Part shown: in pieces, positions 1,401 through 34,334 of the stretch
Layout: every line of letters begins with the position of its first letter
Position numbering within the stretch: position 1 is the first letter of the stretch
The notes under the pieces: generated by a model
Told to the model about the DNA's origin: nothing
Databases searched by the model: none
Seen by the model: only the letters and a program-made list of their open reading frames with translations
Source of the DNA: a virus
Taxonomy: Duplodnaviria; Caudoviricetes
Length of the DNA: 35,559 nt
Direction: 5' to 3' (one strand)
IMG/VR virus record: IMGVR_UViG_3300038673_000605
Span: 1 to 35,559 of that record
Made by a program: the position numbers and the translations under genes

Positions 1401-1820
1401 ATGGTGATTGAGATGGTTTTTTGTCCGGAATGTGGAATGGAAATTAAAGAAAAAACAGCAATGCATTGTCCCGAATGTGGAACAAAAATAATCCAAACAC
1501 CAAAACAAAGCAAACCATCACGTTTAGATAAATATGTCAAAAGAACCTTGAAAGAACCAGACGCTGGTGGTAATTATTATTCAAAACGTGAAAATGAAAT
1601 AGTACCAACAGAATCAAACATGGCAACCGTCCAACCTAGAAAAAGATTGTTAGATAGGTTCACAGAAGGATTGCTTGCTTATGTTATCTGGTTTTCAATA
1701 ACTCTTATTTTAGGAATCTTTTTATTACTAATTATTGGTGCTTGGACAATTATAGCGTCTCCTATAATAGCTGCAATTATAGTTTATATCATTTTTAGGG
1801 ATGAAAATAGATCTTATTAA
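1401..1820 (+). CDS. Zinc-ribbon protein with two C-terminal transmembrane helices (moron-like)
   Basis: FCPECG...HCPECG at the N-terminus and a hydrophobic hairpin at the C-terminus; AT-rich; opposite strand to the tail operon. The start may be ATG 1413 after GGTGA. Confidence 0.8.
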   Translation: MVIEMVFCPECGMEIKEKTAMHCPECGTKIIQTPKQSKPSRLDKYVKRTLKEPDAGGNYYSKRENEIVPTESNMATVQPRKRLLDRFTEGLLAYVIWFSITLILGIFLLLIIGAWTIIASPIIAAIIVYIIFRDENRSY

Positions 1821-1824
1821 TCAA

Positions 1825-4800
1825 CTATCCGAAGTCGTACATGTTATATTTGTCAGCTGCTTCTTCCATTGCTTCATTAGCATACCTTTTAATCTCTTTT
1901 TTGTAATGTTCCATTCCTACAAATGTGCCTTCTAATTTAATTGCACCCTCATGGAAGTGGATCCCCCCATCCTTTTTACTGGATCCTGGTCCTTGTGGTG
2001 GGGGGGAGTACGTTCCAGCCAAAGCCCTTCGGGATAAATCATAATCCCTGTTAGCTATCCTGGCCCAAACATGACTGTTACCGTCATAAGTTCCCCACAT
2101 CATCTCTGATGGAAGACCAAACAGGGTAGAAGCAACATCCATAATCCCCAGGGTCATGTCGAAACAGTTACCACCCGAATCAAGAGCAGTTAAAGGATTC
2201 ATCAAATGGCCGCCATACCCCACATACTCAAGGGCGGGGCCAATATCCGTCATGAACTGAGCAAAATCACCAGCAGGGCCACTTGGAGGGTTCCAGAATC
2301 CTCTTATCAACTTGGCAGCCATATCGAAGGGTTGCCCCCCTATTACAGCCCAAGTATGTGGAATCGAGGTTCCATCCCATACACCATTGCTGAGTCCACC
2401 GCCCAGACCAAATCGGTTTCCTTCACTCATTAAAAATTGAGCGCCATCATAGCAATTAGTCTGTCCTGACCTCCAAACTTCCTCATTTGTCTTCTGATCA
2501 CCATAATAGAATGAATAACTCAATGGTGCGGCCATTCCGTCTGCTATTGGGTTGAATCCACCCAATCCTGAGAATCTGTTGGCCATGGCACTGGCAATAT
2601 ATCCACTACCAACACCCGACCTGGAGGCCATGGTACTAACAATAGTATCCTTGATAGGGCCACGTGGAGGACCATAAAAAGCTCCACCTCCCCCACCACC
2701 AGATCCACTACCGGTTGACGCGGGGCCCCAAGGCCATGTAAATGGAGGAATTATGCTCTTAATAAAGTTATAAACTTTTGTTCCCAGATTAGTTAAACTA
2801 AAACTTCCAGTTATTCTGCTAACTTTACTATAAGCCCATGCTGCTGCGTTAGTAGCTAATAAGGATATGTTAAACTCTCCAACTATGCGGTTAACTTTTG
2901 TTTGAACCCATGCAGTTGCAGTTCTCATCAAAGTAGTTATATTAAACTTGCCACTGATTTTGGCAATTTTGCTCCTAATCAAATTAAGACCATGAGTAAA
3001 GAGCGTTGTTAAGTTAAGCGAGCCCGTAATGCTTGCAAGTTTGGATCTAATCCATTTGATTACATCTCCAGCGGTTGGTAGTTTAAAATTTTTAATATTT
3101 CCTTTGAAGTCGTGGATGCCTTCGCTGACATCACGAATAAAATCGGCGAACCTTTTGATATAACCTGCCCCGGTTCGTATATATCCTGCAAATGTCACAA
3201 CATACGGTGTGGCGGCACGGATACCTTCAGCCAACCATTTAGCACCATCAATAAGTAAATTAAATTCAGGTTTGGCCTTTTTAATTTCTGGAGCCAAATC
3301 TTTACTAGCATCACTGACAGGGAATAACGCTTCCCACAATTCACCGAAAGCCTCTTGCAAAGGACTCCACACTTCACCAAGTGCACTTCCAAGTTCGCTG
3401 GCAGCGCTTGATAATTCTGTCCAAACATCCCCAAATGCACTGCCTACATCTCCAAAAGCTGCCCCAATTTCATTAATGGCAGGACCAAGTACGATCCATA
3501 CTTGGTTTAATGCCTGTCCAACAATAGTCACGGCCCCTTTGAAATCAGACCAGGTATTACTGACAAAATCAACCAGGCCGTCTTTAAAAGAAGTTAATGG
3601 CCCTGTGAGTTGTTGGAATATTCCACCCATACCCCAATCACCAAACGGGGCTTTAAGATATGATATAACGTCTTGGATTGCTCCTTGGAAATCTCCAGTG
3701 AATAGATCATAAATAATATCGGCACCTTTTTGGAGAGGATTGAATAATGCGGCTAATGGGTTTGTTAATCCTTGGATTCCTTTAGTGAAGTTCCATAGAT
3801 TGTTTGATACTTCTCCCCCAGCTTCAAACCAATCATCCATCAGGTTCAAAAAATGACCTGTGGCAAGGCCAATCGCGGTTCCAAATGATGCGACTCCTGC
3901 CATTGCACCTGTTGTCAATCCTCCACCGGCTGCAATTTCACCACCACTTAAACTCAAAGCTGCAAGGGGCCCTAATGCAAAATCTCCTGCGAAGGAAGTA
4001 GCTTTACTTAAAGTACTTGTCGTGGTTCCAGCAGTACCTGGTCCTTTGTTTGCCGCGTTAGCGATAGCTGCCTCTTCAGCTTCCATCCTATATAACTTCA
4101 TTGCATTATAAGCAGCAACACCAGCACTGACCACAGGAGCAAGGGCCGTGGCCAATAAACCAGCAGTTCCAACCATGAAAGCAAGAGTAGTACTCCAACC
4201 ATCGGTTTTAGTATCTAAATCTATAACAAAATCAAGCACATCTTCAATATAAGGCAACAATTTCTCTCCAACATTAGTAGCCGCCATTTGGAGTTTGCCC
4301 TTAATCTCTTCCCATTTAATTGATGCAATATCTAACTGGGATAGGCCAGAGTATCCTTCATCAACCAGGGCCTTATTAAGCGCATTTATTCTTTCAGACA
4401 CCGTTCCCTGGTCCTCAAGAGTGTCTAATTGTTGTTTAAGAATGCTGTCACGCTCTAACTGGGTGGTGTTACCAGTCAGTATATATTCTTTAAGGTCCAT
4501 TTGGGTTTCAATTGCGCTTTTACCCATGGCCTGACTTGTAACAAGATAATCCGCAGTAGCAATTCCCAACTTTTTAAGCTCACCAGACGTTAAGTTTGTT
4601 TGTTTAGCCACAGCTCCAGTCATGAGGTTGTTCATGAAAGTGTCATCACCAGGGACCTCAGCAACTATCGTCTGTATTTCTTTTATATAATCTTGGGCCG
4701 CACTGGTGCTCATCTTCGTTTGAAGATAAGCAGCGTTAAATTCCTTAGTTGTGGCACCAGTCCATGCAGTCTGAATCACTTCCATGGCCCCAATACCACC

Positions 4801-12126: not shown

Positions 12127-13536
12127 TCATACTGGCACTAATTCAATATATTTGAAGACTCCCCAATCACTGTCCACAGTGCCCGTTTTAACCATTTTGA
12201 AGTTCATTCCACGAGGCAATAATACTTCAGCCTCTCCGGGGTTCAGTGTTTTAGACATGTCTAAAGCAGTGCTCCCCTTAGGCATGTTAATTTTAAGCAC
12301 CGTGTCTGTGTCTGTAAATGTAGATAGGTCAAATGTTTCTTTAGAAGTGCTCATATATCCTTTATCAGAATAGGAACCATTCTTAACAAAGGTTAATTTC
12401 TGATCACCAGTTCCGCGCCATAGAACTGTATCTTTAGTAAGCTGTTTTTTTGCTATAACCCCATCCAATACTTTAACACTCTCTTTTATTTTAGGGATCA
12501 TCTCTTTAGGTGTGAATAATAGATTTTCGCTCACTTTCCCAGTTCGGAGATATTTGTTAATAATTTCATATGTCCCCTTGTTTCCATCTTCAGTATATAA
12601 TTGGAGCGTTTTTTTCTCTTTCTCGGTTAATGACTGGTTTTTGGTCTTTGATGATGAGGGCGTGGTTTCTTCAACTTGTTGAATAATTTTGGCCTGTTCC
12701 TTACCAGTCGCATTAGGACCGGTTCCATCCTTAGGAAGTTTATAACCCTGCTTCTCTAAAAGGGCCTTTTCCAGTTTATTCCGCTTTTTAATCTTCTTAG
12801 CATAATCCTCAGCATCCTTCTTACTATCAAAGTAAACCGGAACACAAGCACACCATGGATGAATCGGAGGGATATACTTAGTTTCGTCAATATCAAAAAT
12901 CCGGCCACTGAAAAGTTGAATACACCTTTTACAAGCCGCGGCACGGTAATCCACTATGAAATATTTAGCACCCTCAGCTTTAGCCTGGGACCAACTAGCC
13001 GTATTACTTCCACGCATGGTTTCGGTGGTGGCAATCTTCCGGGCCCGGTCCTGGCTGATGCCAATCTTATCACTCATCTCCTTAACAATCTCAGTGGGGA
13101 ATTTCTTCTGAGCATAACCATCGGCCAGGATTTTCCCCAGATCCTTTTTAAGGTCCGTGTCCATCTTGGTGACTAACTGCATCACACTGTCAACCATGGT
13201 GATTTGGACTATACTGGAAGATGCAGATGGGGCCACGTTGCCCGTGTTAAGGCCTATCTGGAATGCATCGGCGAGGTTCTGTTTAAAAGTAGTTATGTCT
13301 TCGGTGTTGGCATCGGTGATTACAAAGCCACGGTTCACCATGGCCCTTAAAACCTGTTCTAATTGGTTTGGGTCTTTGAATGTTTTAACAGCCTGTTCGA
13401 GTTCTGCTTGGCCTAATTTCAAGACTTTCTGTAATAATTGTTGGTTGTCTGCGATTTTGTTATACAAGCCGTCGGGGAGTGATTTGGGTTTGGCCACCTC
13501 GTCCCAGGCCGCAGCCTGCAAAGTCATCGGTGCCAT
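12127..13536 (-). CDS. MuF (SPP1 gp7-like) minor head protein fused to a C-terminal ADP-ribosyltransferase domain
   Basis: MuF motifs RARKIATTE, CKRC, PPIHPWCAC. ART motifs YT..Y..INKYLR, LWRG, YMSTS, EAEVLLPRG (R-S-E class). Confidence 0.9.
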   Translation of the reverse strand: MAPMTLQAAAWDEVAKPKSLPDGLYNKIADNQQLLQKVLKLGQAELEQAVKTFKDPNQLEQVLRAMVNRGFVITDANTEDITTFKQNLADAFQIGLNTGNVAPSASSSIVQITMVDSVMQLVTKMDTDLKKDLGKILADGYAQKKFPTEIVKEMSDKIGISQDRARKIATTETMRGSNTASWSQAKAEGAKYFIVDYRAAACKRCIQLFSGRIFDIDETKYIPPIHPWCACVPVYFDSKKDAEDYAKKIKKRNKLEKALLEKQGYKLPKDGTGPNATGKEQAKIIQQVEETTPSSSKTKNQSLTEKEKKTLQLYTEDGNKGTYEIINKYLRTGKVSENLLFTPKEMIPKIKESVKVLDGVIAKKQLTKDTVLWRGTGDQKLTFVKNGSYSDKGYMSTSKETFDLSTFTDTDTVLKINMPKGSTALDMSKTLNPGEAEVLLPRGMNFKMVKTGTVDSDWGVFKYIELVPV

Positions 13537-18311: not shown

Positions 18312-18791
18312 CTAAAGGAAGGTGATAATCTCAATCACCCTATAAGCAACCATCACACAAAAAGTGGCAAAACCGCCAGCAGCAGCCCCTACAATTGCAC
18401 CTATTAAAATTCCCCTTCGACGGCCCTTATCTAATAATTTCTGTTTTTCTTTCTCTTGAATACCTTTAATCTTCTCATCTTGAGTGTTGTTGTGTTCTGT
18501 GGTCAAACCCAAACCCTCTCTTAAATTAAACATTTGGTTATTGAAATTTTCTTTGAGGTTTGATATTTCAGTCATTATGTTACCATATGTTTCATACGTT
18601 CTCCGATCTAAAAGAGAGATTGTTTCTTTCTGGTTTTCCTGTTCTTTCTCTGCTTTAGTTATTCTGCGTTCATGGTCATCTAATGTTGTTTTAGCTTTTC
18701 CCCAATCTTCTTGGTGGTGGCAGTTATGAACTGGTTCTGTGACAACCACACCCTGGTCCTCTTCCGGTAGGTTTTTATCTTCTGGTATCAT
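18312..18791 (-). CDS. Coiled-coil protein with a C-terminal membrane anchor (lysis-module/holin-like)
   Basis: LDDHERRITKAE coiled coil, basic RRR, then a hydrophobic helix; resembles XhlA-type architecture. Confidence 0.6.
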   Translation of the reverse strand: MIPEDKNLPEEDQGVVVTEPVHNCHHQEDWGKAKTTLDDHERRITKAEKEQENQKETISLLDRRTYETYGNIMTEISNLKENFNNQMFNLREGLGLTTEHNNTQDEKIKGIQEKEKQKLLDKGRRRGILIGAIVGAAAGGFATFCVMVAYRVIEIITFL

Positions 18792-19445: not shown

Positions 19446-19895
19446 TCATAGATAATGTATGAGCTTTGTTTTGTGCCTATGTGTCTGAAAGGTTTCATTC
19501 AGCACATCCATCTTACTTTGTGGTTCTGCTTTTTGAGGTGTTTCCATTTTGGAAACAACTGGTTCGGGTTCGGGTTCTGGATAATATGGTGTAAGCCATG
19601 CTCCACTATGATATACTTTCTCTCTTCCTGAAAAAGAGTAATCACTATCACAGTATATGCATGTTAGTTCATCATTACGCTTTAAACCACGAATTAGGCA
19701 GTTATAATGCCCACAATTAGGACAGTAGTTTAGGAAAGCATAATGAGTGTACCATCCTTCACTTACACCTGTGGTGTATCCTTCACCTGAAACGACCCCG
19801 ACACCGGAAGTCGTGGCACTTGATACTGCCATTGTGGAAATTCCGATAACGAGTAAAAGTAAGGGGATGTATATTTGTAGTCGTTTTGGCTTGAT
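19446..19895 (-). CDS. Secreted Cys-rich (zinc-binding) protein with a signal peptide; ATC start
   Basis: GGAGGTG SD, in-frame TGA, then ATC AAG CCA... giving (M)KPKRLQIYIPLLLLVIGISTMAVSSA; NYCPNCGH...ELTCIYCDSDY motif. Confidence 0.75.
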   Translation of the reverse strand: MKPKRLQIYIPLLLLVIGISTMAVSSATTSGVGVVSGEGYTTGVSEGWYTHYAFLNYCPNCGHYNCLIRGLKRNDELTCIYCDSDYSFSGREKVYHSGAWLTPYYPEPEPEPVVSKMETPQKAEPQSKMDVLNETFQTHRHKTKLIHYL

Positions 19896-20158
19896 TCAAA
19901 CACCTCCTTGATAAGGGGCGTTCTCTTCTCGTTGCTACGGCTACGCCTTAATCTCGCCACTGACTTGTTTAAAGCCCGAGCTAAGGCTGATAAAAACATG
20001 ATATCACCTTTAAATTTTAATTTAAAATAATAAATAAGCGGTGGGCCGTGGGTCTTTCGCATGCTCCCACTTCCATTACTAAGAGTTACTAACCGGCTTT
20101 CACTCTGTTCACTTATCCAGGCTATACTGGAACGGCCCTATTAGTAAATTATTTTGGC

Positions 20159-20273
20159 AACTGTACGGAAATTCCGAACAGTTCAACCAGTCACAACCTG
20201 TGACAATTTGTCACGTTTTCAACTTGTGCAAAATTTGCACGAGTTCTAACTACTATAATTTGTAGTATGTTCT
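20159..20273. repeat. Array of five sequence-diverse palindromes with 26-bp periodicity
   Basis: Dyad centres at 20171, 20197, 20207, 20233 and 20259; 3-nt centres AAT/ACC/ATT/AAT/ATT; units mostly begin AAC and end GTT(C). Confidence 0.85.
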
Positions 20274-20389
20274 CAATCTTCATGAGGGCGGCCTCTAAGC
20301 CGTTCCTTGTCAATGCAGTTAATCATAACCTGATAAAAAGAATCATCCTCATCCTTCTTCCTACCCTTCTTTTTCAAAGTCTCTGACAT
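20273..20389 (-). CDS. Small hypothetical protein (38 aa, not in the ORF track)
   Basis: GGTG SD, MSETLKKKGRKKDEDDSFYQVMINCIDKERLRGRPHED*. Confidence 0.5.
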   Translation of the reverse strand: MSETLKKKGRKKDEDDSFYQVMINCIDKERLRGRPHED

Positions 20390-20403
20390 AGCCCCACACC
20401 ACT

Positions 20404-20565
20404 TCATATCGAGTACTGGTTAAGGTCCGTGGCCCTGCAAACCAGTTCATCCTTATCCACACGGAGGTTAACACTTCCACAGTTCAAACAATAATTAACC
20501 ACCTTCTCATTAACGGTTAAGGCTTTATCACCACAGTCTAAACACTTGTAAATGGTTAGTTTCAT
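20404..20565 (-). CDS. Small zinc-ribbon protein
   Basis: YKCLDCG...YCLNCGS; start re-placed at MKLTIY (20565). Confidence 0.7.
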   Translation of the reverse strand: MKLTIYKCLDCGDKALTVNEKVVNYCLNCGSVNLRVDKDELVCRATDLNQYSI

Positions 20566-20941
20566 ATATACCAAAGCCTTTAAACTAGAGGTGGTTTGGG
20601 GACAGTTTACCGACATATCCCAGGTCCACAGTGATTTAATATGGCTTTTACTCCAGGAAGCAGTGTCATAGAATATATGACCATAAAAAAGGGCGTGTGT
20701 GGGGGCCTTTTAAAGACAACGCCCCAGGTCTTGGTGTCCGAATAGACGGAGGTGAACATTATAATATGGAAAAGTGTAGGGGATTTTAGATGTTGATATC
20801 GACTGTTCATCACGACCAAATGATGAATTAAACTCCTAAAAATCCCCTAAAATCTAGGAGTGAAAATTAGGGGGGGTTGGAGAAGATGCCAGATTGGTGT
20901 CGTTTTTGCTGTGAGGGCATCTTCCCCGTTGGGGTTAAAAA

Positions 20942-23281: not shown

Positions 23282-23899
23282 ATGCCTGGATTAAAAATAA
23301 GAGAAATAAAATTCACAAACAGTCAAAAATACGCTAAAGTAGATGCTGAAGACTATGATTGGTTAAATCAATGGGAATGGCAAAAATTCAGCAGACAGGA
23401 TGATCCTGATAATTATTATGCTGTAAGATGGGAAAATGGCAAAATGATATATATGCACCGCCAAATCCTCGGACTAAAAAAAGGAGAACGATCGCGACAC
23501 TTAAACGGTCGTGGATGGGATAACCGTCGCAGCAACCTTAAAAAATTAACACATGAAGGGGTTATCAAATCGGGGAATAGGTGGATTGCACGTATCAAAG
23601 TTGATTACAAATATATTCAACTTGGTATATTTAAAACAGAACCTCAAGCAACTAGGAAATATCAAGAAGCTAAACGAATTATTGATGATAAAAGAGTTGT
23701 TAATAAAATAGATAAAATACAAAGTATAATAATTCAAACTCGAAAAACAAGCAAATACAAAGGAGTAACTTGGAACAAAAGTAAAGGGAAATGGGCAGCT
23801 TATAGTTATATAAGAGTCCATCATGGATTGTTTGATTCGGAAGAAGAAGCCAATCAAGCTGTTGAGGACTATAGAGAATATAGGAAAAATATTAAATGA
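23282..23899 (+). CDS. HNH homing endonuclease with AP2 DNA-binding domains
   Basis: AKVDAEDYDWL, YMHRQILG, RHLNGRGWDNRRSNL, RWIARI..LG.F and TSKYKGVTWNK..KW motifs. Confidence 0.88.
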   Translation: MPGLKIREIKFTNSQKYAKVDAEDYDWLNQWEWQKFSRQDDPDNYYAVRWENGKMIYMHRQILGLKKGERSRHLNGRGWDNRRSNLKKLTHEGVIKSGNRWIARIKVDYKYIQLGIFKTEPQATRKYQEAKRIIDDKRVVNKIDKIQSIIIQTRKTSKYKGVTWNKSKGKWAAYSYIRVHHGLFDSEEEANQAVEDYREYRKNIK

Positions 23900-24374: not shown

Positions 24375-25088
24375 CTAAGCCATATCTACCATGCCAAAGC
24401 CCATGCTTGTCTTCTCACCAAGGCCCACCTGCCATGCGAATTCTAATAATTTCTCTGGTCCTGTTAATTCAAACTTCATCTGATTAGATCTGTGATAAAT
24501 CTCAATATTATCCTTTTTTATTATAATCCGCTTCTGTTTAACAGTACCTTTTAAGGGTTTGAAATCTAAATATAAATGGTCATGGTTCTTATAATAACTC
24601 CAATACTTTTTAAACAAGTTTTCGTTCAACCTCTCTTTAAATTCTGGCTCTCCGGGGCCCAAATCCCATGTTTTTCCGTCTCGTTCCGTTCGTAGATAAA
24701 TTGGGCTTAACGTTTTAAACTTCATATTCTCAGTGAATTTGGGTGTTTTCATGATTTCTGCTTTTTCCACTTCCGCCTGGACTCCCTGGAAGTCTATTTT
24801 AGGGTTACTGAAAAGACCATACCAGAGGTTTTTAATAAACTCCTCATTCACACTGGAAACTTGGACTTGGAACTTGCCATCCTTGGTAACTAATCCATCT
24901 GGTTGGATCTTTAACTGTGGGATCTGGACCTGGCTGAATGTGAAATATTTAAACCCTCTTGAGTCGTGCAATTCGGTTGCAAAATGAGTGTCTTCAAGTG
25001 CATTGTAAATAACAGTTGCTATTGTATAATTATTGTTATAAGGTAGTTTGAATCCTGGAATCGTTTTGAATGTTATTTTTAATCTCAT
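24375..25088 (-). CDS. cas6: CRISPR-associated endoribonuclease Cas6
   Basis: MRLKITF start, LHD..GFKYFTFS, FKTLSPI and the C-terminal G-loop GLGEKTSMGFG. Confidence 0.95.
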   Translation of the reverse strand: MRLKITFKTIPGFKLPYNNNYTIATVIYNALEDTHFATELHDSRGFKYFTFSQVQIPQLKIQPDGLVTKDGKFQVQVSSVNEEFIKNLWYGLFSNPKIDFQGVQAEVEKAEIMKTPKFTENMKFKTLSPIYLRTERDGKTWDLGPGEPEFKERLNENLFKKYWSYYKNHDHLYLDFKPLKGTVKQKRIIIKKDNIEIYHRSNQMKFELTGPEKLLEFAWQVGLGEKTSMGFGMVDMA

Positions 25089-25855
25089 CTATTCCAATCC
25101 TCCGGACGTTCGTTTCTTAACTCTGGAAACATGACTCCATCAAGATAATAACTCCCACCTTTATCCAGGGCAAATTTTGAGAATAGCATAGACCAACGGA
25201 CTTTATCGTATCCTTGTAATGGGCCGTATTTGTCATATAAGGAGAAATAAGGGAGGTTGTTGGTGACTATGTATGCCCATATGTCTCTCCACGTCCACCA
25301 TTTAAGTGGAAATGATACGAACCTTTGGCCTTCTTTTTGAATTAGTTGATTAGAGACTCTTTCTCTCCTTGTGATACTTTCTTCAGCCCTGATTCCCAAT
25401 ATTTCTATGTTGATGTTTCTTTCTTTCATTATTTTGAATAAATTGCCAAAGAATCTTTTGCTTGATGGGTCCCTCTGGCCACGTACAAATAACTTATTAG
25501 GATCAACTCCTAATTCTAAGGCTATTTTGGTAAGTTCCTTGGTGACTTCTTTGGGTTGTTTTATTTGTTTAGAGTCGTAGTCATAACCTGCGCTGAAGTG
25601 ATATACTGGGATGTTCGGCTCTATTATTAGGGCCATGTGGAGGAGGACTAAGCTGTCTTTTCCTCCACTGTAAAGGACTATACATTTGTGGTTGTGGATG
25701 AGGTCTGTTAACATTTGTTTGGATTGATTAACCTTTCTTTTATATTCTTTCTGCTTGGCCCACATCCCAAACATTGCCCTGGTTTTTCGTGGCATGTTTT
25801 GAGAATGGCATTTACCGTGTGATTTCATGTAACACAATCCCTGTAACCACGTCAT
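25085..25855 (-). CDS. cysH: CysH-like (PAPS reductase family) protein of the type IV-B locus
   Basis: YSGGKDS PP-loop, GIRAEESITR and PLKWWTWRDIWAYI..NNLPY..LYD; probable start about 25795 (MPRKT). Confidence 0.9.
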   Translation of the reverse strand: MTWLQGLCYMKSHGKCHSQNMPRKTRAMFGMWAKQKEYKRKVNQSKQMLTDLIHNHKCIVLYSGGKDSLVLLHMALIIEPNIPVYHFSAGYDYDSKQIKQPKEVTKELTKIALELGVDPNKLFVRGQRDPSSKRFFGNLFKIMKERNINIEILGIRAEESITRRERVSNQLIQKEGQRFVSFPLKWWTWRDIWAYIVTNNLPYFSLYDKYGPLQGYDKVRWSMLFSKFALDKGGSYYLDGVMFPELRNERPEDWNR

Positions 25856-26276
25856 TAATAAAAGGTAGTCTATTAGTTGTTTCTATTTTGAATCTGGGTA
25901 ATCCTTTGTAGGGGGCTTTTCTAACTGGTAAGTGTTCGTTTTCTCCTCCAAAATGGACAATTATGTCTGGTGGGCTTTTTTGCCATATTAATGATTGGAT
26001 GTGATTTTGGATTTTTTGGATTGGTTCTTTTCCATTGACTTCCATAATTATGTGTTCTTTTTCTTCGTTGGCTTTCCAAAAAACATCTTCTGTACTATAT
26101 CTTTTAATTTCGTGGGCGTTCTTTGCAGAATGAAGATGTTTATCTCTGAGTTGACAATTAGAGTCTATCAAATGTATAGTTGTGGGGCCAATCATGGTGA
26201 ATATTGTCCTATAACATCTCGTAAGGTTACCATCACTATTCATTTTATGATATGCTAATTCAATATCACTCTTCAT
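25812..26276 (-). CDS. Unknown protein embedded in the type IV operon
   Basis: ATG 26276 overlaps the csf3 stop (ATGA); no family recognised. Confidence 0.65.
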   Translation of the reverse strand: MKSDIELAYHKMNSDGNLTRCYRTIFTMIGPTTIHLIDSNCQLRDKHLHSAKNAHEIKRYSTEDVFWKANEEKEHIIMEVNGKEPIQKIQNHIQSLIWQKSPPDIIVHFGGENEHLPVRKAPYKGLPRFKIETTNRLPFINDVVTGIVLHEITR

Positions 26277-27001
26277 ACTCCCACCGTTATCTGGCTCTGT
26301 GGTACCAGGCACATCTTAACATTCCGTTTATCCCAATAAGGTGGCTTATATGATGCGTTCATAAATTGACTACCTTCGATTAATGGGAATGTTCTGGCCA
26401 TCTCCTGGGGAATTGGTCTCATGATATTTCCATCTTTGAAGAAACTATAATCTGTTTCTGTTTCTTCGATTTTGAAATCCAATATTTTCCCTCCACCTAT
26501 AGCTCCTTTTTTCCCTAAGCTGGTGAGGTGAGGGAGTATTTTTTCCAGGTCTTTTGGATCTGCGCAGGTGTAAAATGTAATGGTGTGTGGTGTGATGAAT
26601 GGTAGGTTGATCATAAAGTCCTTGAAATAGCCCCTATCAGTGTGTACTCGGCCTTGTCTTTGCCGTGGTTTTAATTTATCCACATTTTTATCCTGAAATC
26701 GTTTATAAATCGTAGATTGATATAATGGAGCCTGGTCAAATATGCTAACAGATGCGTGGTAAACATCTCCAGTTTTTTTGATTGGTATTTGCAGATCTTC
26801 AACTGGGACAATCTGGTCAGAGGGGAGGATATAGAAAAGTTCACCTAGGGCATCCCGCATACAAAGATACTGTACCAGTGAGTCGAAGTATAACCATGGG
26901 TGGGCCAAAAAAACCGGTGGTCGTACTTTGAAAGATATTTGGAGAGGACTGTAATCCTCTCCGCACTGGTATTCATTTATCTTTTGTTTGATTACTTCCA
27001 T
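26273..27001 (-). CDS. csf3: Type IV Cas5-family subunit Csf3
   Basis: PLQISF..PV....LYFDSL, YHASV, GYFK, ITFY, SLGKKGAIGGG, RPIP and YKPPYW motifs. Confidence 0.88.
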   Translation of the reverse strand: MEVIKQKINEYQCGEDYSPLQISFKVRPPVFLAHPWLYFDSLVQYLCMRDALGELFYILPSDQIVPVEDLQIPIKKTGDVYHASVSIFDQAPLYQSTIYKRFQDKNVDKLKPRQRQGRVHTDRGYFKDFMINLPFITPHTITFYTCADPKDLEKILPHLTSLGKKGAIGGGKILDFKIEETETDYSFFKDGNIMRPIPQEMARTFPLIEGSQFMNASYKPPYWDKRNVKMCLVPQSQITVGV

Positions 27002-27840
27002 TTTTTCACCATCTCATCCAGTTGCTGGATTATGGCTTCCTTGTTTTCTGTGATGTAATCTAAGTATGGTTTTTCATCCTCTGAGTTGTAGGGGTAGTTT
27101 AATCTTACTTTTCCATAGCCACTGCCACTTTTACCTCCTATGTATGGCCTTTCTTTCCAGAGGTTTAACATCCTTATGAGACAAGCTTTTTCATGAGGTT
27201 GTGGGTCTTCCAAGCTGATTTCGTGGGTGAATCGTGTTCCTGTGATGAGGGTTTGGAACTCGTATTTCATCTGCGTGGCGGCTTCTCCTTCTTCTCTGTC
27301 TTCTTTAAGGCTATCTAGACGTGTTCCAAAATCTTTACTCCGCAGACCATAGGCGCTGAAGTTAGGTTCTCCCTGTTCATCAAATGGGAGATAGTGGGCT
27401 GTTTCTTTGCAGACTATATCTGCCATCCCTACTTTGAGTTTGCCTTGTATCATCTGATTTCCTAATGCGGAACCTAAAAGACTGATTGGTGGGATGTGTT
27501 TCCTGATAGCATCCTTCATTTTAAGATTAATTGCACCTTTATCTTTCGCATCAACAGCCTCTAACATACCTCCATCGAAGAGGAAATGATATACTTTTTT
27601 AGAGTCTAATTGGTAATCCAGCAGGTCAAGGAAGTCCTGCATGATCAATGATCTCAAGTTTCCTCTGATGCTGTTCCCGTGAATAGTTGGGATAAGATCT
27701 ATTTCCTCTTCTCCTGTTTCTGCATTCTTAACCACGGTTGGTAAGACTAGGATTGGTTTAATGGTTCCATGGCTTTCTGACCCTCCATGATGTATTGGGC
27801 TTAACGCTTCAATGTTTCCTTTTATTACTTCTGTTTCCAT
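26992..27840 (-). CDS. csf2: Type IV Cas7-family backbone Csf2
   Basis: ALSPIHHG, IPTIHGNSIRGNLR, LFDGG, PPISLLG, GKLKVG, QM.YE.QTL..G and IGGKSGSGYG motifs. Confidence 0.92.
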   Translation of the reverse strand: METEVIKGNIEALSPIHHGGSESHGTIKPILVLPTVVKNAETGEEEIDLIPTIHGNSIRGNLRSLIMQDFLDLLDYQLDSKKVYHFLFDGGMLEAVDAKDKGAINLKMKDAIRKHIPPISLLGSALGNQMIQGKLKVGMADIVCKETAHYLPFDEQGEPNFSAYGLRSKDFGTRLDSLKEDREEGEAATQMKYEFQTLITGTRFTHEISLEDPQPHEKACLIRMLNLWKERPYIGGKSGSGYGKVRLNYPYNSEDEKPYLDYITENKEAIIQQLDEMVKKWK

Positions 27841-27841
27841 A

Positions 27842-28237
27842 TTAATTACCTCCTAATGTTGCCTGGCCCTGTTCTGCTAATTTGCGTTCTTCTTTCATTT
27901 TATCAACTTGCTCTAAGGCCATCATCACAATATAATTAGTCTCCTTCCTTAACACGTTCAAAACATAAGGTCTGTTCTCTTCTAAAAATTCTATTATCTC
28001 GGTGTTAATGTTCACCATGGGGACTTCAACATTCTTTTCAAGTGCTTCTGTGAATTGTTTGACATTCACAGCTCCTGATGCTTCCCTCACTCGTTCTATA
28101 AAGAATGTGTGGGCGCTTTTAACCCCTATTTTTCTCCATGGTATTCTTATGTAAATTTTAGCCAAAAGATAGGCTAATTTGCTTTCAGTTTCTAATTCTA
28201 ATTTCTTTTTTTCTTCCATCCAATCACCTTTATTCAT
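27842..28237 (-). CDS. cas11: Type IV small subunit Cas11 (Csf4)
   Basis: Small all-helical protein between csf1 and csf2, the canonical IV-B position. Confidence 0.7.
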   Translation of the reverse strand: MNKGDWMEEKKKLELETESKLAYLLAKIYIRIPWRKIGVKSAHTFFIERVREASGAVNVKQFTEALEKNVEVPMVNINTEIIEFLEENRPYVLNVLRKETNYIVMMALEQVDKMKEERKLAEQGQATLGGN

Positions 28238-28895
28238 TTAAATAGACACATAACCTCCAGATGGGACTGTGTGCATATTTTTTAATCTTCTTTGCTGTAT
28301 TACGTGGATTATCCAACTTCCTATAATGGTGCATTGACAATTCTCCGGTTTCCAATTCTGCTTTTGGTATTTTAAGCTCTCTTAATTCTTCAATTGTTTT
28401 GAATAATTCTTGTATCGCCTCCACTTCAACAAAATAAGTGTCATAATCAACACAACAACAGATTAACCCTTTATTGTCAGGGTTGACTTTGTTTAACATC
28501 TTTATCCAGCCCACTTTCTGCCAAGTGTTAGTCAGGTAAAGAATGAATGGTTCGTCTGGTAAATTAAGAATAATATCTTTAGCTTCTTGTTTTTTGAATT
28601 TTTTAAACTCATCATTAGTTATTATCCACATTGACCTGCGTAATTCATTAGATCGGGATATTAATGGTTTGCAGAATTCACATACCACGTCTCCCTGGCT
28701 GACCTCTGGTCCGGCTGTGAAGTTTCCTCCAAACTTTTTTTTATAACCATAGTTCGTTTCCTGACCACATAGGCAGCAGGTTCCTTTTTTATCCCCTAAA
28801 AATTGGTTTGTAATGGTTTTAACATTCCATTGGTTTAATATTTCTGGTTGTGTGTTCTGTTCTTGAACTGTACGGCTTAATGTCTCCATATTCAC
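28230..28895 (-). CDS. csf1: Type IV large subunit Csf1 (Cas8-like)
   Basis: CCLCG...NFT......VCEFC zinc site and LP.EPF......QK..W motif. Confidence 0.85.
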   Translation of the reverse strand: MNMETLSRTVQEQNTQPEILNQWNVKTITNQFLGDKKGTCCLCGQETNYGYKKKFGGNFTAGPEVSQGDVVCEFCKPLISRSNELRRSMWIITNDEFKKFKKQEAKDIILNLPDEPFILYLTNTWQKVGWIKMLNKVNPDNKGLICCCVDYDTYFVEVEAIQELFKTIEELRELKIPKAELETGELSMHHYRKLDNPRNTAKKIKKYAHSPIWRLCVYLNE

Positions 28896-31606: not shown

Positions 31607-31825
31607 TTATTCAACCACCACCCATGATTCACCGTTCCATTGCATGTTTAACATTTTCAAACCTCTGACAAGTGCATCACAGGCTTTTTGAGCTAATTCT
31701 AAAAGATACTCCCATAACTCTTTAAAAAAATCCACCAACTCTTTATATTCAGCCTGTTCTAATGGTAATCCTCTATAAGTTCCAAAGTTTACAAGTTCAT
31801 AAGTTATCAGTGCGAGTTTATTCAT
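31607..31825 (-). CDS. Hypothetical protein
   Basis: Overlaps the upstream stop; operon packing. Confidence 0.55.
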   Translation of the reverse strand: MNKLALITYELVNFGTYRGLPLEQAEYKELVDFFKELWEYLLELAQKACDALVRGLKMLNMQWNGESWVVVE

Positions 31826-32510
31826 TTAAACAACCCCATTGTTTCCTTTTTGCACTTCTTAATTCGTTCCACCATCTATGCTCTAAACTAAATACAGTTT
31901 CTCCTTGGCGGAAATCGTTAGGACTTTCCCACTGCATCTCTCTCATTTTCTGCCACAGTTCAGGGTAATATTTAAACAAAATCCGCAATTCATTTAATTT
32001 TTGTAATGGACAACACCAACAATTATAACGGCTTCTCTGTTTGTAAACCCCCCCAAAATCAAACCCTTCAGCATAACAGAGTTCTAAAGCCTTTTTTTCA
32101 GTGTAACTATAATCAATCAAGGGGTACCTAATAATACCTTTTTTATACCTTTTGTTGTTGGTCCTATGAAGTTCATCAGCCGCCATTCCAACATACTGAG
32201 TTAACCCATTCTTGTACTTACCTAAATATTTGTTAATATTATCTCTTTTAAGCCCCGTACACCACCTAACAAGTGGAGATGCAAATCCCCATTTTTTAAA
32301 TCCTTCTTGTATCTTTTTAGAAATGTCTATGTGTGTTATGGACATTCCTACATATTTCTCCACTTTTTCAAGATGTTCATCAACCCCTGGCCACATCCAG
32401 GATCCAACATCAGCATACACGATTTCATCTAGTTCCAGTTGGTTTTGTTTGATGAGAATTAACATTGCTGTGCTGTCCTTCCCACCTGAGTAAAGAGCTA
32501 TATTTTTCAT
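31818..32510 (-). CDS. Second PAPS reductase/CysH-family protein with a Cys cluster
   Basis: YSGGKDSTAM, RWCTGLK, YVGMAADE..R, YPL and NCWCCP motifs. Confidence 0.88.
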   Translation of the reverse strand: MKNIALYSGGKDSTAMLILIKQNQLELDEIVYADVGSWMWPGVDEHLEKVEKYVGMSITHIDISKKIQEGFKKWGFASPLVRWCTGLKRDNINKYLGKYKNGLTQYVGMAADELHRTNNKRYKKGIIRYPLIDYSYTEKKALELCYAEGFDFGGVYKQRSRYNCWCCPLQKLNELRILFKYYPELWQKMREMQWESPNDFRQGETVFSLEHRWWNELRSAKRKQWGCLNE

Positions 32511-32533
32511 AAGATATTTTTTACTTCTTTATA

Positions 32534-32785
32534 TTACGGTTTACCGAAGTTTAATTCTTCTTTAGTTATTTCTAGCCTAATTTTAAATGCTTCTTTGATA
32601 AAATTACTTGTAAAAATTCCTATATCATATTGTGTCTTCTCAAAAACCCTATCCAAATCATTAGTAATTACAACTTTAAATTGAACATAATTAGGGTTAG
32701 TGTGCTTATTTCTAAATTCAATCAATTTAAAAGCGGTAAATAATATAATTAATTCCCAATAATTCCAATAATTTTTTTCACTCAC
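32534..32785 (-). CDS. Hypothetical protein
   Basis: GGAGG SD and GTG start. Confidence 0.55.
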   Translation of the reverse strand: MSEKNYWNYWELIILFTAFKLIEFRNKHTNPNYVQFKVVITNDLDRVFEKTQYDIGIFTSNFIKEAFKIRLEITKEELNFGKP

Positions 32786-32800
32786 AAAATCCCTCCTTTT

Positions 32801-33370
32801 TTAATCTTTTTCATAATAAATATGCTCTGTATTTCCCTTAACTTCCCTAATTTGCTTTGGAAATTGTATAATAGGATAGATATGTCCTGTGAAAAAGTCT
32901 TCCCACCACCCCACAAATCCCATCAAAAATCCCTCCTTTTCTTCCCTTTCCATTTCATCACTCTCCACATAAGCACGTTCCGTCATCAACTGCAACCTGT
33001 ACCCCTCCAAACAACCACCACCACTCATAAACCACCACACCTGCAACATTCCAATTGAAAACTTCAATTCAGTTCCATTCATGTTGACCGAGCCTTTTTG
33101 CATTTTAGTATCATCTGGTGGAAGCCAGCTACACTTAGATTGCTGGTTTAATGGTGTTGTTAACTGGAACTGTTTACCTTTAATGTTTACTATGTCGCCC
33201 CTGGAGTCAGTTGGCCCTATTTTAGAGTGTTTAATGCCATCCGTCATTTTTGGATAAAATTCATATCCAAAGTTTTCCGCGGCCATTAAAATGAGTTCTG
33301 CAAATTCTTTAATCGTTGAAATTTCACCTAACATGTAACAGACAAATTCTTCAAATTCTTCATTATTCAT
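32801..33370 (-). CDS. Hypothetical protein
   Basis: GGAGG SD; start overlaps the upstream stop. Confidence 0.65.
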   Translation of the reverse strand: MNNEEFEEFVCYMLGEISTIKEFAELILMAAENFGYEFYPKMTDGIKHSKIGPTDSRGDIVNIKGKQFQLTTPLNQQSKCSWLPPDDTKMQKGSVNMNGTELKFSIGMLQVWWFMSGGGCLEGYRLQLMTERAYVESDEMEREEKEGFLMGFVGWWEDFFTGHIYPIIQFPKQIREVKGNTEHIYYEKD

Positions 33371-33597
33371 CCTATCCTCCCTAAAGGAATTGGCCCTTTT
33401 TCCTTTGCTTTCTCTTCAAATAAATTAAAAAAAGTTCTAAACGCACTGCAATGTTTACAAGGTTCATAAATGCCTTCGTCTAAAACATCCTCTTCGTATT
33501 CAAAATATTTCCTGTTTTCCTGTTTTATTCTCCTGATATATGGGCACCAGAAAACATGATATGTCCCGTTTTTTATGTTAGCAACAAACCTAATCAT
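33367..33597 (-). CDS. Ada-type metal-binding domain protein
   Basis: FVAN....YH..WC....I..EN..YF......GIYEPCKHC pattern. Confidence 0.75.
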   Translation of the reverse strand: MIRFVANIKNGTYHVFWCPYIRRIKQENRKYFEYEEDVLDEGIYEPCKHCSAFRTFFNLFEEKAKEKGPIPLGRIG

Positions 33598-34334
33598 CCG
33601 AACAATCCCTCCAGCGTTGTCTGCTTATCCTCCTCTGTTATCTCCACCGTTGGAGTGGCCACCTCAGCCTGTTCCAAGAGCATCCGTGACTTATTATATT
33701 CTTCCTCGGACAGACTCCTAATATGGGGATAGCCAACAGTGTTAAGGGCTTCATTAACTTTCCAAGCACCATAAAAATCCAATAATAAAGAATTATGCCA
33801 AATAACCTCACCAACCACCCCATGAACTAAAAAGTTAACTGTGGCCATGAGACAGCAGGTATGATCCACATCCTCTGCAACCATGTAACTTCCTGGCCTT
33901 TCAACATGTGCAGCTAGAAGACACCTGCCACTGCCAGCTGATGGGTCACTCATCTTAAGCGGACCGTCCTTCTGAACATTGCCTATATTTATCTTGGCCA
34001 TTGCAGTGCAGATTTCATGTGGTGTGAAAAACTGTCCTGCCTTCTCACGCTGATAAGGAGTGCTGATGCAGGATTCATAATAAGTTCCTGGGAAATCAAA
34101 CCATTCTACGCTTTTTAATTTTTGGTTCATGGTGAGGATGAATTCCTGGTACATTTCGTATAGGATCCTGATTTCATTCTTGGTGTAATTCTTATCCCAG
34201 GTCATGGACTGGTCTGTGAGGTGGCCCATGATAATGTATTCCAGCCAGTCGTCAAAGACTCTGGCCAGGTCGTGTTTATTGGTTAGTTGGCCTATTAGTT
34301 CATGGAACTTTTTAAAGCCTGGTGGGATGTCTAT
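33594..34334 (-). CDS. N6-adenine DNA methylase-family protein (short form); probable ATA start
   Basis: GQFFTP and SAM-binding DPSAGSG. The frame extends 35 codons upstream of ATG 34229 (FKKFHELIGQL..HDLARVFDDWL) to ATA 34334 after GGAGG. No NPPY/F catalytic motif is visible. Confidence 0.8.
   Translation of the reverse strand: MDIPPGFKKFHELIGQLTNKHDLARVFDDWLEYIIMGHLTDQSMTWDKNYTKNEIRILYEMYQEFILTMNQKLKSVEWFDFPGTYYESCISTPYQREKAGQFFTPHEICTAMAKINIGNVQKDGPLKMSDPSAGSGRCLLAAHVERPGSYMVAEDVDHTCCLMATVNFLVHGVVGEVIWHNSLLLDFYGAWKVNEALNTVGYPHIRSLSEEEYNKSRMLLEQAEVATPTVEITEEDKQTTLEGLFG

Follow-up and report, generated by a model that had tools for sequence, protein, structure and literature searches.

A viral palindrome array related to segments of RhuM and Bro-N genes, and its possible role as docking sites for host defence proteins

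The virus record and its palindromes

The window analyzed here is the whole of a virus record, 35,559 bases long with an estimated completeness of 34%, and carries head, tail, terminase and PCNA genes. A complete type IV-B locus with its own Cas6 and without a CRISPR array (csf1-cas11-csf2-csf3-orf-cysH-cas6, 24375-28895) lies 4 kb from the palindromes discussed below. The unassigned orf between csf3 and cysH is 166 aa long, and a Cas6 match is present in 3 of 10 related viral loci (L002, L006, L008). Contigs of runs X2, X3 and X5 do not extend over the cas genes, which says nothing for or against their presence in those runs. Other genes include a MuF head protein fused to an ADP-ribosyltransferase domain (12127-13536), the extension of which differs among relatives; an AP2-domain protein on the strand opposite to its neighbors (23282-23899), which by eye has an HNH-like N-terminal part and is likely a homing endonuclease; and a second PAPS-reductase-family gene with an N6 methyltransferase (31818-34229), separate from the type IV-B cysH. 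Neither a RhuM nor a Bro-N gene was found within the 35.6 kb, and since the record is a fragment, the virus may encode a reader protein of its own in the remainder.

The host is likely a member of the Methanobacteriaceae, because the organism-named relatives of Cas6 (3 of 95) are from Methanobacterium and Methanobrevibacter, and the virus-bearing runs are bioreactor samples. A genome scan with the portal protein gave one weak Bacteroidota match. A 94-nt contig from run X5 contains 39 bases that match window 18640-18678 exactly, flanked by two copies of a CRISPR-like repeat that is presumably of the Methanobacteriales type, and this stretch is likely a host spacer. An 88-nt contig from the same run contains 35 bases found exactly in csf3 (26349-26383), perhaps a second spacer.

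The palindromes and the slot that contains most of them are as follows:

19535-19561, minus strand: sixth RhuM-like palindrome, perfect core 19539-19557, center 19548, in frame in the ORF at 19446-19832
19988-20274, no strand assigned: strain-variable slot containing the array, from contigs of runs X2, X4 and X5
20157-20186, plus strand: unit 1, RhuM-type site, center 20171, ATVRKFRTVQ in the gene frame
20190-20204, no strand assigned: unit 2, perfect 6-3-6 palindrome, center 20197, sharing a half-site with unit 3, Bro-N-like grammar
20194-20220, minus strand: unit 3, Bro-N-type site, center 20207, ETVTNCHRL type
20218-20245, plus strand: unit 4, RhuM-type site, center 20233, STCAKFA type
20251-20267, no strand assigned: unit 5, degenerate palindrome, center 20259, core like a TTNCS Bro-N variant

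The five palindromes of the original prediction were confirmed in sequence and position, at 20159-20183, 20190-20204 (GTCACA-ACC-TGTGAC), 20200-20214 (GTGACA-ATT-TGTCAC), 20221-20245 and 20251-20267 (TACTATA-ATT-TGTAGTA). Their centers are spaced 26, 10, 26 and 26 bp apart as it had reported, and the three-frame translations it gave (ATVRKFRTVQ-PVTTCDNL, QPVTICHVF and STCAKFARV-LTTIICSM) are correct. Three of the array units carry mismatches, and the 26-bp period is not conserved, as spacings in other arrays are 21, 22, 26, 32, 38, 39, 42, 45 and 62. A structured RNA had been suspected at 20036-20146, where folding is no better than in shuffles (z -0.18 and -0.32). Across the window, Rfam returned a single chance-level match, outside the array, and ARAGORN returned none.

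How far the cluster departs from chance depends on the criterion. At a loose criterion of five of six pairs the cluster is unremarkable, with the observed count of 6 reached in 68 of 500 block dinucleotide shuffles, while at six of seven pairs a count of 5 is reached in 5 of 500. Four strong palindromes within 70 nt occur in 2 of 1000 shuffles. With models built from gene-borne palindromes, more than one site per 110 bp was seen in none of 200 shuffles, and the observed scores of 30.9, 27.2 and 33.7 bits compare with a shuffle maximum of 18.7 bits, a test that is partly circular because four of the RhuM training genes came from the unit-1 pattern. Compared with 38 independently found genes, units 1 and 4 each match at 25 of 27 positions, unit 3 at 22 of 27 and the 19548 site at 21 of 27, against 20 of 27 for the best other place in the window; unit 2 (19 of 27) and unit 5 (15 of 27) do not stand out. 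The decisive evidence for the array is homology, not palindrome counts.

Palindromes inside RhuM and Bro-N genes

The original prediction proposed a link to RhuM and Bro-N genes, which proved right for units 1, 3 and 4. Unit 1 is identical to RhuM gene L062 at 29 of 30 nt, the sole difference being synonymous, and it agrees at 25 of 27 with an independently found RhuM gene (L087) and at 30 of 31 nt, off-symmetry base included, with a lone site in three related archaeal-virus-like records. Unit 4 matches an annotated RhuM gene on plasmid NC_017070 at 27 of 28 nt (E 0.008) and RhuM gene L082 at 25 of 27, while unit 3 matches Bro-N gene L190 at 26 of 27 nt. Units 2 and 5 show a likeness to Bro-N cores, with no gene match found: the best match of unit 2 to a Bro-N gene is 19 of 27, and the core of unit 5 is one base off that of Bro-N gene L114. 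At the level of sequence, units 1, 3 and 4 are segments copied from inside RhuM and Bro-N genes, asymmetric flanks included.

Pattern searches place many of these segments in genes and some outside them. Of the 17 viral stretches with the unit-1 pattern, 6 lie in RhuM ORFs that are intact, 1 lies in a disrupted RhuM ORF and 10 lie outside such genes; the unit-3 pattern occurs in 36, with 32 in Bro-N genes and 4 orphans; and the unit-2 pattern has two viral matches, both outside Bro-N genes. The exact unit-1 variant had no match in metagenomes, and the unit-5 variant had none in 401 Bacteroidota genomes and two on plasmids, which is at chance level. Matches on a Methanothrix plasmid and in Pseudoalteromonas were set aside as not being palindromic units. 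When the whole array, with no protein in the query, was searched by blastn against plasmids, 33 records matched, 24 of them under annotated RhuM genes (many being near-identical Bacteroides plasmids), and one unannotated match is a Bro-N gene; against phages, 9 records matched, none under an annotated RhuM or Bro-N gene. All genes that match units are bacterial or from bacterial-type viral records, and the RhuM and Bro-N gene sets are Bacteroidota or viral.

The site centered at 19548 is among the strongest palindromes of the window, has the top model score and is closest to RhuM gene L079. It reads VVSKMET within the Pro/Glu linker of the ORF at 19446-19832; five of six homologs of this ORF have a related linker motif, V/T-V/I-S-K-x-E, and a degenerate DNA version of the site is present in a related virus (L145).

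Within the genes themselves, the palindrome is a regular feature. From 36 RhuM loci, 25 distinct segments were parsed, the other 11 loci being duplicates or fragments, and all 25 contain a palindrome with 8-10 of 10 pairs, at the same codon position in 24 and with differing sequences. Pairs 2-6 are Watson-Crick in all 24 in-register genes and include several pair types but never G-T, consistent with a dyad at the DNA level. The RhuM-class dyad has a 3-5 nt center and family flanks, a form that units 1 and 4 share. The 38 candidate Bro-N loci yielded 23 parsed segments, with at least five of six pairs in 22; in this family too, the palindrome varies in sequence while its codon position is constant. 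The outer pairs are near-invariant and common to both families despite their different reading frames. Second cognate copies near the genes, at no more than two mismatches, were found in 6 of 47 rows, two of these being a tandem gene pair, and no convincing upstream operator was seen in the four second-copy rows viewed.

The AlphaFold model of a RhuM protein (mean pLDDT 81.7) contains a winged helix-turn-helix at residues 32-102. Among 48,161 chains, the best match to this region is the DNA-binding domain of pSK1 Par (8CSH; rmsd 1.5 over 51 residues), a moderate fold match at Z 7.2, under 8. Foldseek with the RhuM model found nothing at E 0.001, PDB sequence searches with RhuM and Bro-N gave nothing significant, and an ESM Atlas search returned RhuM clusters only. 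In classic helix-turn-helix proteins, positions 1 and 6 of the recognition helix are base-reading positions.

We parsed 134 RhuM domains from 174 proteins and compared 69 variable columns with the palindrome, which lies ~20 codons downstream of the recognition helix. The best predictors were residue 1 of that helix for the outer half-site codon and residue 6 for the inner codon, and columns between helix and palindrome had lower covariation scores. In leave-one-out prediction, the two helix residues gave the correct inner codon for 111 of 134 domains, whereas 84 other columns gave it for 73 and a majority rule for 45. Among distant pairs, the inner codon was the same in 563 of 710 with the same helix position 6, against 509 of 4227 otherwise, and the outer codon in 1010 of 1491 with the same position 1, against 275 of 3446. 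The covariation is also seen in 41 tree cherries (Fisher p 0.011), and a matching pattern is visible by eye in Bro-N. That two recognition-helix residues predict the half-site suggests that each RhuM protein likely binds the site in its own gene. More specifically, each protein likely reads its own palindrome through the winged helix-turn-helix, with helix position 1 reading the outer and position 6 the inner half-site, so that these two positions would set many specificities. It is possible that the covariation in part reflects helix-wing coupling within the protein, or block recombination.

These findings also bear on whether the palindromes simply spread themselves. As recombination or template-switch hotspots, or as targets of an unknown recombinase, they could accumulate wherever they are tolerated without benefiting the virus, and the outer pairs common to both families, the many orphans (10 of 17 and 4 of 36 viral matches) and the degeneracy of several units would all be expected. 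However, the covariation is position-specific and involves the recognition helix, which points to read-out by a protein, and the packing of units through overlapping shared flanks, together with the in-frame fit of the 19548 site in its linker, suggests selection. We therefore consider mere self-spreading quite unlikely.

Read-out by a protein instead lends weight to the binding-site panel of the original prediction. The array is very probably a set of DNA sites to which RhuM and Bro-N proteins of the host bind, whichever role binding may serve.

Occurrence and possible function of the array

The array lies in a slot that varies between strains. A contig from run X5 (depth 5.7) agrees with the window at 19838-19987 and at 20275-20441 but has 592 different bases between these stretches, and contigs of runs X2 and X4 diverge from the window at 19987. 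Another X2 contig diverges at 20078, and its 30 visible letters contain two imperfect palindromes, which is only a hint. A second variable slot adjoins the array at 20323-20684, where contigs of X2 and X3 skip a 70-aa zinc-ribbon ORF, and a GC-rich hairpin (20286-20305) stands just beyond the right edge of the array slot, in flanking sequence that related contigs retain.

Searches for a close viral relative carrying the array were negative: it is absent from 10 Csf2 loci and 33 terminase loci, array-flank patterns had no match in viral and metagenome contigs, and a protein scan with the ORF at 19446-19832 returned no viral locus. Mixed arrays are present in unrelated phages (L016, L019, L021, L217 and G175), of which L016, L019 and L021 were retrieved with a two-part pattern and are partly circular as evidence. 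In G175, a Bro-N-type and a RhuM-type site overlap via a shared flank, as in the window. Six records chosen for one site contained 5 extra sites in 220 kb, compared to none in 589 kb from 10 control records and one in 12 shuffle rounds. Sites are also found inside ORFs (19548; G172), which fits a position-independent role.

Several further occurrences were observed. A lone RhuM-type site at 6924-6954 of L143, and also in L145 and L148, sits in a divergent promoter gap of these related archaeal-virus-like records, with a TATA-like box ~25 bp away. In L021, about five different palindromes (1370-1545) lie downstream of an ORF6N gene (ORF 1568-2218, minus strand) whose own variable segment is palindromic. 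The unit-3 dyad core recurs as tandem iteron-like repeats at ~1500-1620 of L014, L017 and L022, by eye apparently in phage replication genes. The Bro-N site may resemble phage origins, and origins could be its natural target.

The array after the ORF6N gene in L021 is one of the observations that would suit a different use of the units, in which they would be donors for diversifying a RhuM- or Bro-N-like gene located in the remainder of the viral genome, or binding sites for a protein of that type encoded there. The fragmentary state of the record and the gene-like flanks retained by the units would suit it as well. A palindrome-only donor would, however, break the match with the helix ~20 codons upstream, the units come from two families with different frames, and RhuM and Bro-N genes were absent from all 24 viral records searched (the window included, most of them incomplete), with controls found in five of five. 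This use is very improbable.

The sites could also serve as operators or sensors through which RhuM or Bro-N proteins of the host or of a co-resident element tune viral minus-strand genes downstream. The array lies ~150-270 bp upstream of a small ORF and membrane or cell-wall ORFs, and in G002, G170 and G171 the lone site, which lies in a divergent gap, has by eye a TATA-like box at ~25 bp. Yet other copies are inside ORFs or past gene ends, five or six specificities per row exceed the need of an operator, and a related contig retains both flanks but has other sequence in the slot, so that a regulatory role appears unlikely.

The second branch of the original prediction, in which the array supplies guides to the Cas6/type IV-B complex, did not find support. 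In this scheme, hairpin RNAs from the array would be cut by the viral Cas6 and bound by the type IV-B complex, possibly silencing host rhuM or bro-N. A complete csf1-cas11-csf2-csf3-cysH-cas6 locus without an array, 4 kb away, speaks for the scheme, and the RNA of type IV-B complexes is described as not known in the structural report (PMC7937560). The array strand also folds well (z -3.6 and -5.5), but palindromes fold on either strand by construction. The minus-strand linkers that had been likened to a CRISPR 3′ handle are, beside units 1, 3 and 4, the flanks of RhuM and Bro-N genes, which removes this support for guides; they differ from the repeat end beside the spacer in run X5. No conserved 8-nt 3′ handle was found, as the linkers differ from one another and the array has no exact ATTGAAA-N handle. 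Repeat-spacer structure was likewise not found: the window contains no exact 14-mer repeated at a distance of 50-85 bp, and the 20 largest repeat families listed include no near-identical direct repeats of the mini-array type, which would have a period of ~60-75 bp. No palindrome array is present in eight type IV-B records fetched whole (three of them 100% complete, most incomplete), and Csf2 was found in nine type IV-B records and in none of 21 others searched, of which 16 were picked for such sites and most are incomplete. Furthermore, the units are ~26 nt, compared to the heterogeneous 55-60 nt RNAs reported for the solved complex (PMC7937560), and there is no reason for a guide to sample only the palindromic segment. 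A guide function is highly improbable; the type IV-B complex may bind some array RNA, and nothing ties that complex to the array.

The array likely works as decoy docking sites rather than CRISPR guides. Both families carry a defence annotation: PADLOC assigns RhuM to PDC-S05/S23 and the matched Bro-N group to PDC-S13/S04, with PDC-S05 corresponding to Virulence_RhuM (PF13310) and PDC-S13/S04 to Bro-N (PF02498). One PDC-S05 protein with a RhuM domain lowers the plating of T7 and T5 ∼1000-fold (10.1101/2024.09.26.614923), S05, S13 and S04 are present in archaea (PMC12988326), and RhuM is among the genes enriched next to invertible genes, in a table with restriction and BREX neighbors at its head (PMC9881135).

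We propose that the palindromes copied from RhuM and Bro-N genes would act as docking sites that occupy or placate host defence proteins. The virus would collect one site per specificity and pack the units by letting neighbors share outer flanks, which would give rise to the 26- and 10-bp spacings. During replication, the site copies would either titrate these proteins or identify the viral genome as self, in the way that aba acts for BstA (see below). The chief objection is that titration would increase defence if the proteins did no more than repress their own genes; for the model to hold, docked protein has to be the harmless form. That the array is a multi-specificity DNA decoy or self-tag protecting the virus against host defence proteins is, on balance, probable, and this protective reading is favored by the annotation of both families as defence, by the number of specificities, by a slot that varies between strains, by copies that do not depend on position and by the precedent of BstA and aba. 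A broader joint reading can be offered tentatively, as a plausible but somewhat doubtful extension: alleles of RhuM and Bro-N type would encode both a recognition helix and the palindrome it reads, with docking as the harmless or self state, and bacterial and archaeal viruses would counter them by capturing one site for each allele into a library that involves no protein, can be updated and, much like spacers, is exchanged between strains.

If the array does protect the virus in this way, it would be a kind of anti-defence made of DNA alone and aimed at several targets, and it would offer a first way into the mechanism of RhuM (PDC-S05) and Bro-N (PDC-S13/S04), two widespread yet poorly understood families. 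A predicted site, two specificity residues and a natural antagonist can be named, which are testable in E. coli. Natural versions of the helix-to-half-site code run into the thousands (24,458 representatives at E 1e-10) and would provide ready orthogonal protein-DNA pairs, and the sites in a virus could reveal the defence alleles in its host population.

Comparison with known systems

The literature searched contains no description of these palindromes or arrays, most subscription papers lying outside its coverage, nor does it mention the gene-internal palindrome or the covariation of that palindrome with the helix. Type IV-B loci of archaeal viruses have been described before, some accompanied by a mini-array and some lacking one, and that of Fuxivirus carries a virus-borne CRISPR mini-array (10.1101/2023.08.24.554615). 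Both are short, non-coding arrays whose units vary, in an archaeal virus with type IV-B genes, whereas the array in the window has no identical repeats, consists of ~26-nt units that are all palindromic and from one gene segment, and does not co-occur with type IV-B elsewhere in the records searched.

The PDC-S05 and PDC-S13/S04 genes are the closest counterparts in sequence, as units 1, 3 and 4 copy their segments, while the array itself is non-coding DNA in a record without those genes. A phage protein that binds DNA within its own gene is not without parallel. Roi of phage HK022, which Clerget and Boccard are said to have described in 1996, is reportedly a DNA-binding protein with a site in its own gene, and RhuM, modeled as a winged helix-turn-helix protein with a moderate Z, would be similar in that its specificity residues track the site in its own gene. 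Roi has a single site, in contrast to the many variable sites here, and we know of no variable helix-site code or orphan arrays in other viruses reported for it.

The BstA system of Salmonella prophage BTP1 provides the precedent for protection. Its aba is a DNA element of a defence locus, cognate to one BstA allele, that protects the carrier phage and also acts in trans at high copy (PMC8585504). BstA is a KilA-N-like DNA-binding protein, and units 1, 3 and 4 likewise derive from within candidate defence loci. No BstA-family protein is among the Pfam matches of the 54 window ORFs, which is a weak test. As described there, aba is one 63-bp element with terminal direct repeats, is not a palindrome, lies at the start of the gene and gives self-immunity to a phage that encodes BstA. 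The array differs in having several mid-gene dyads, taken from the genes of other elements and from two other families, in a record without those genes, and it is by analogy with aba that a protective role is proposed.
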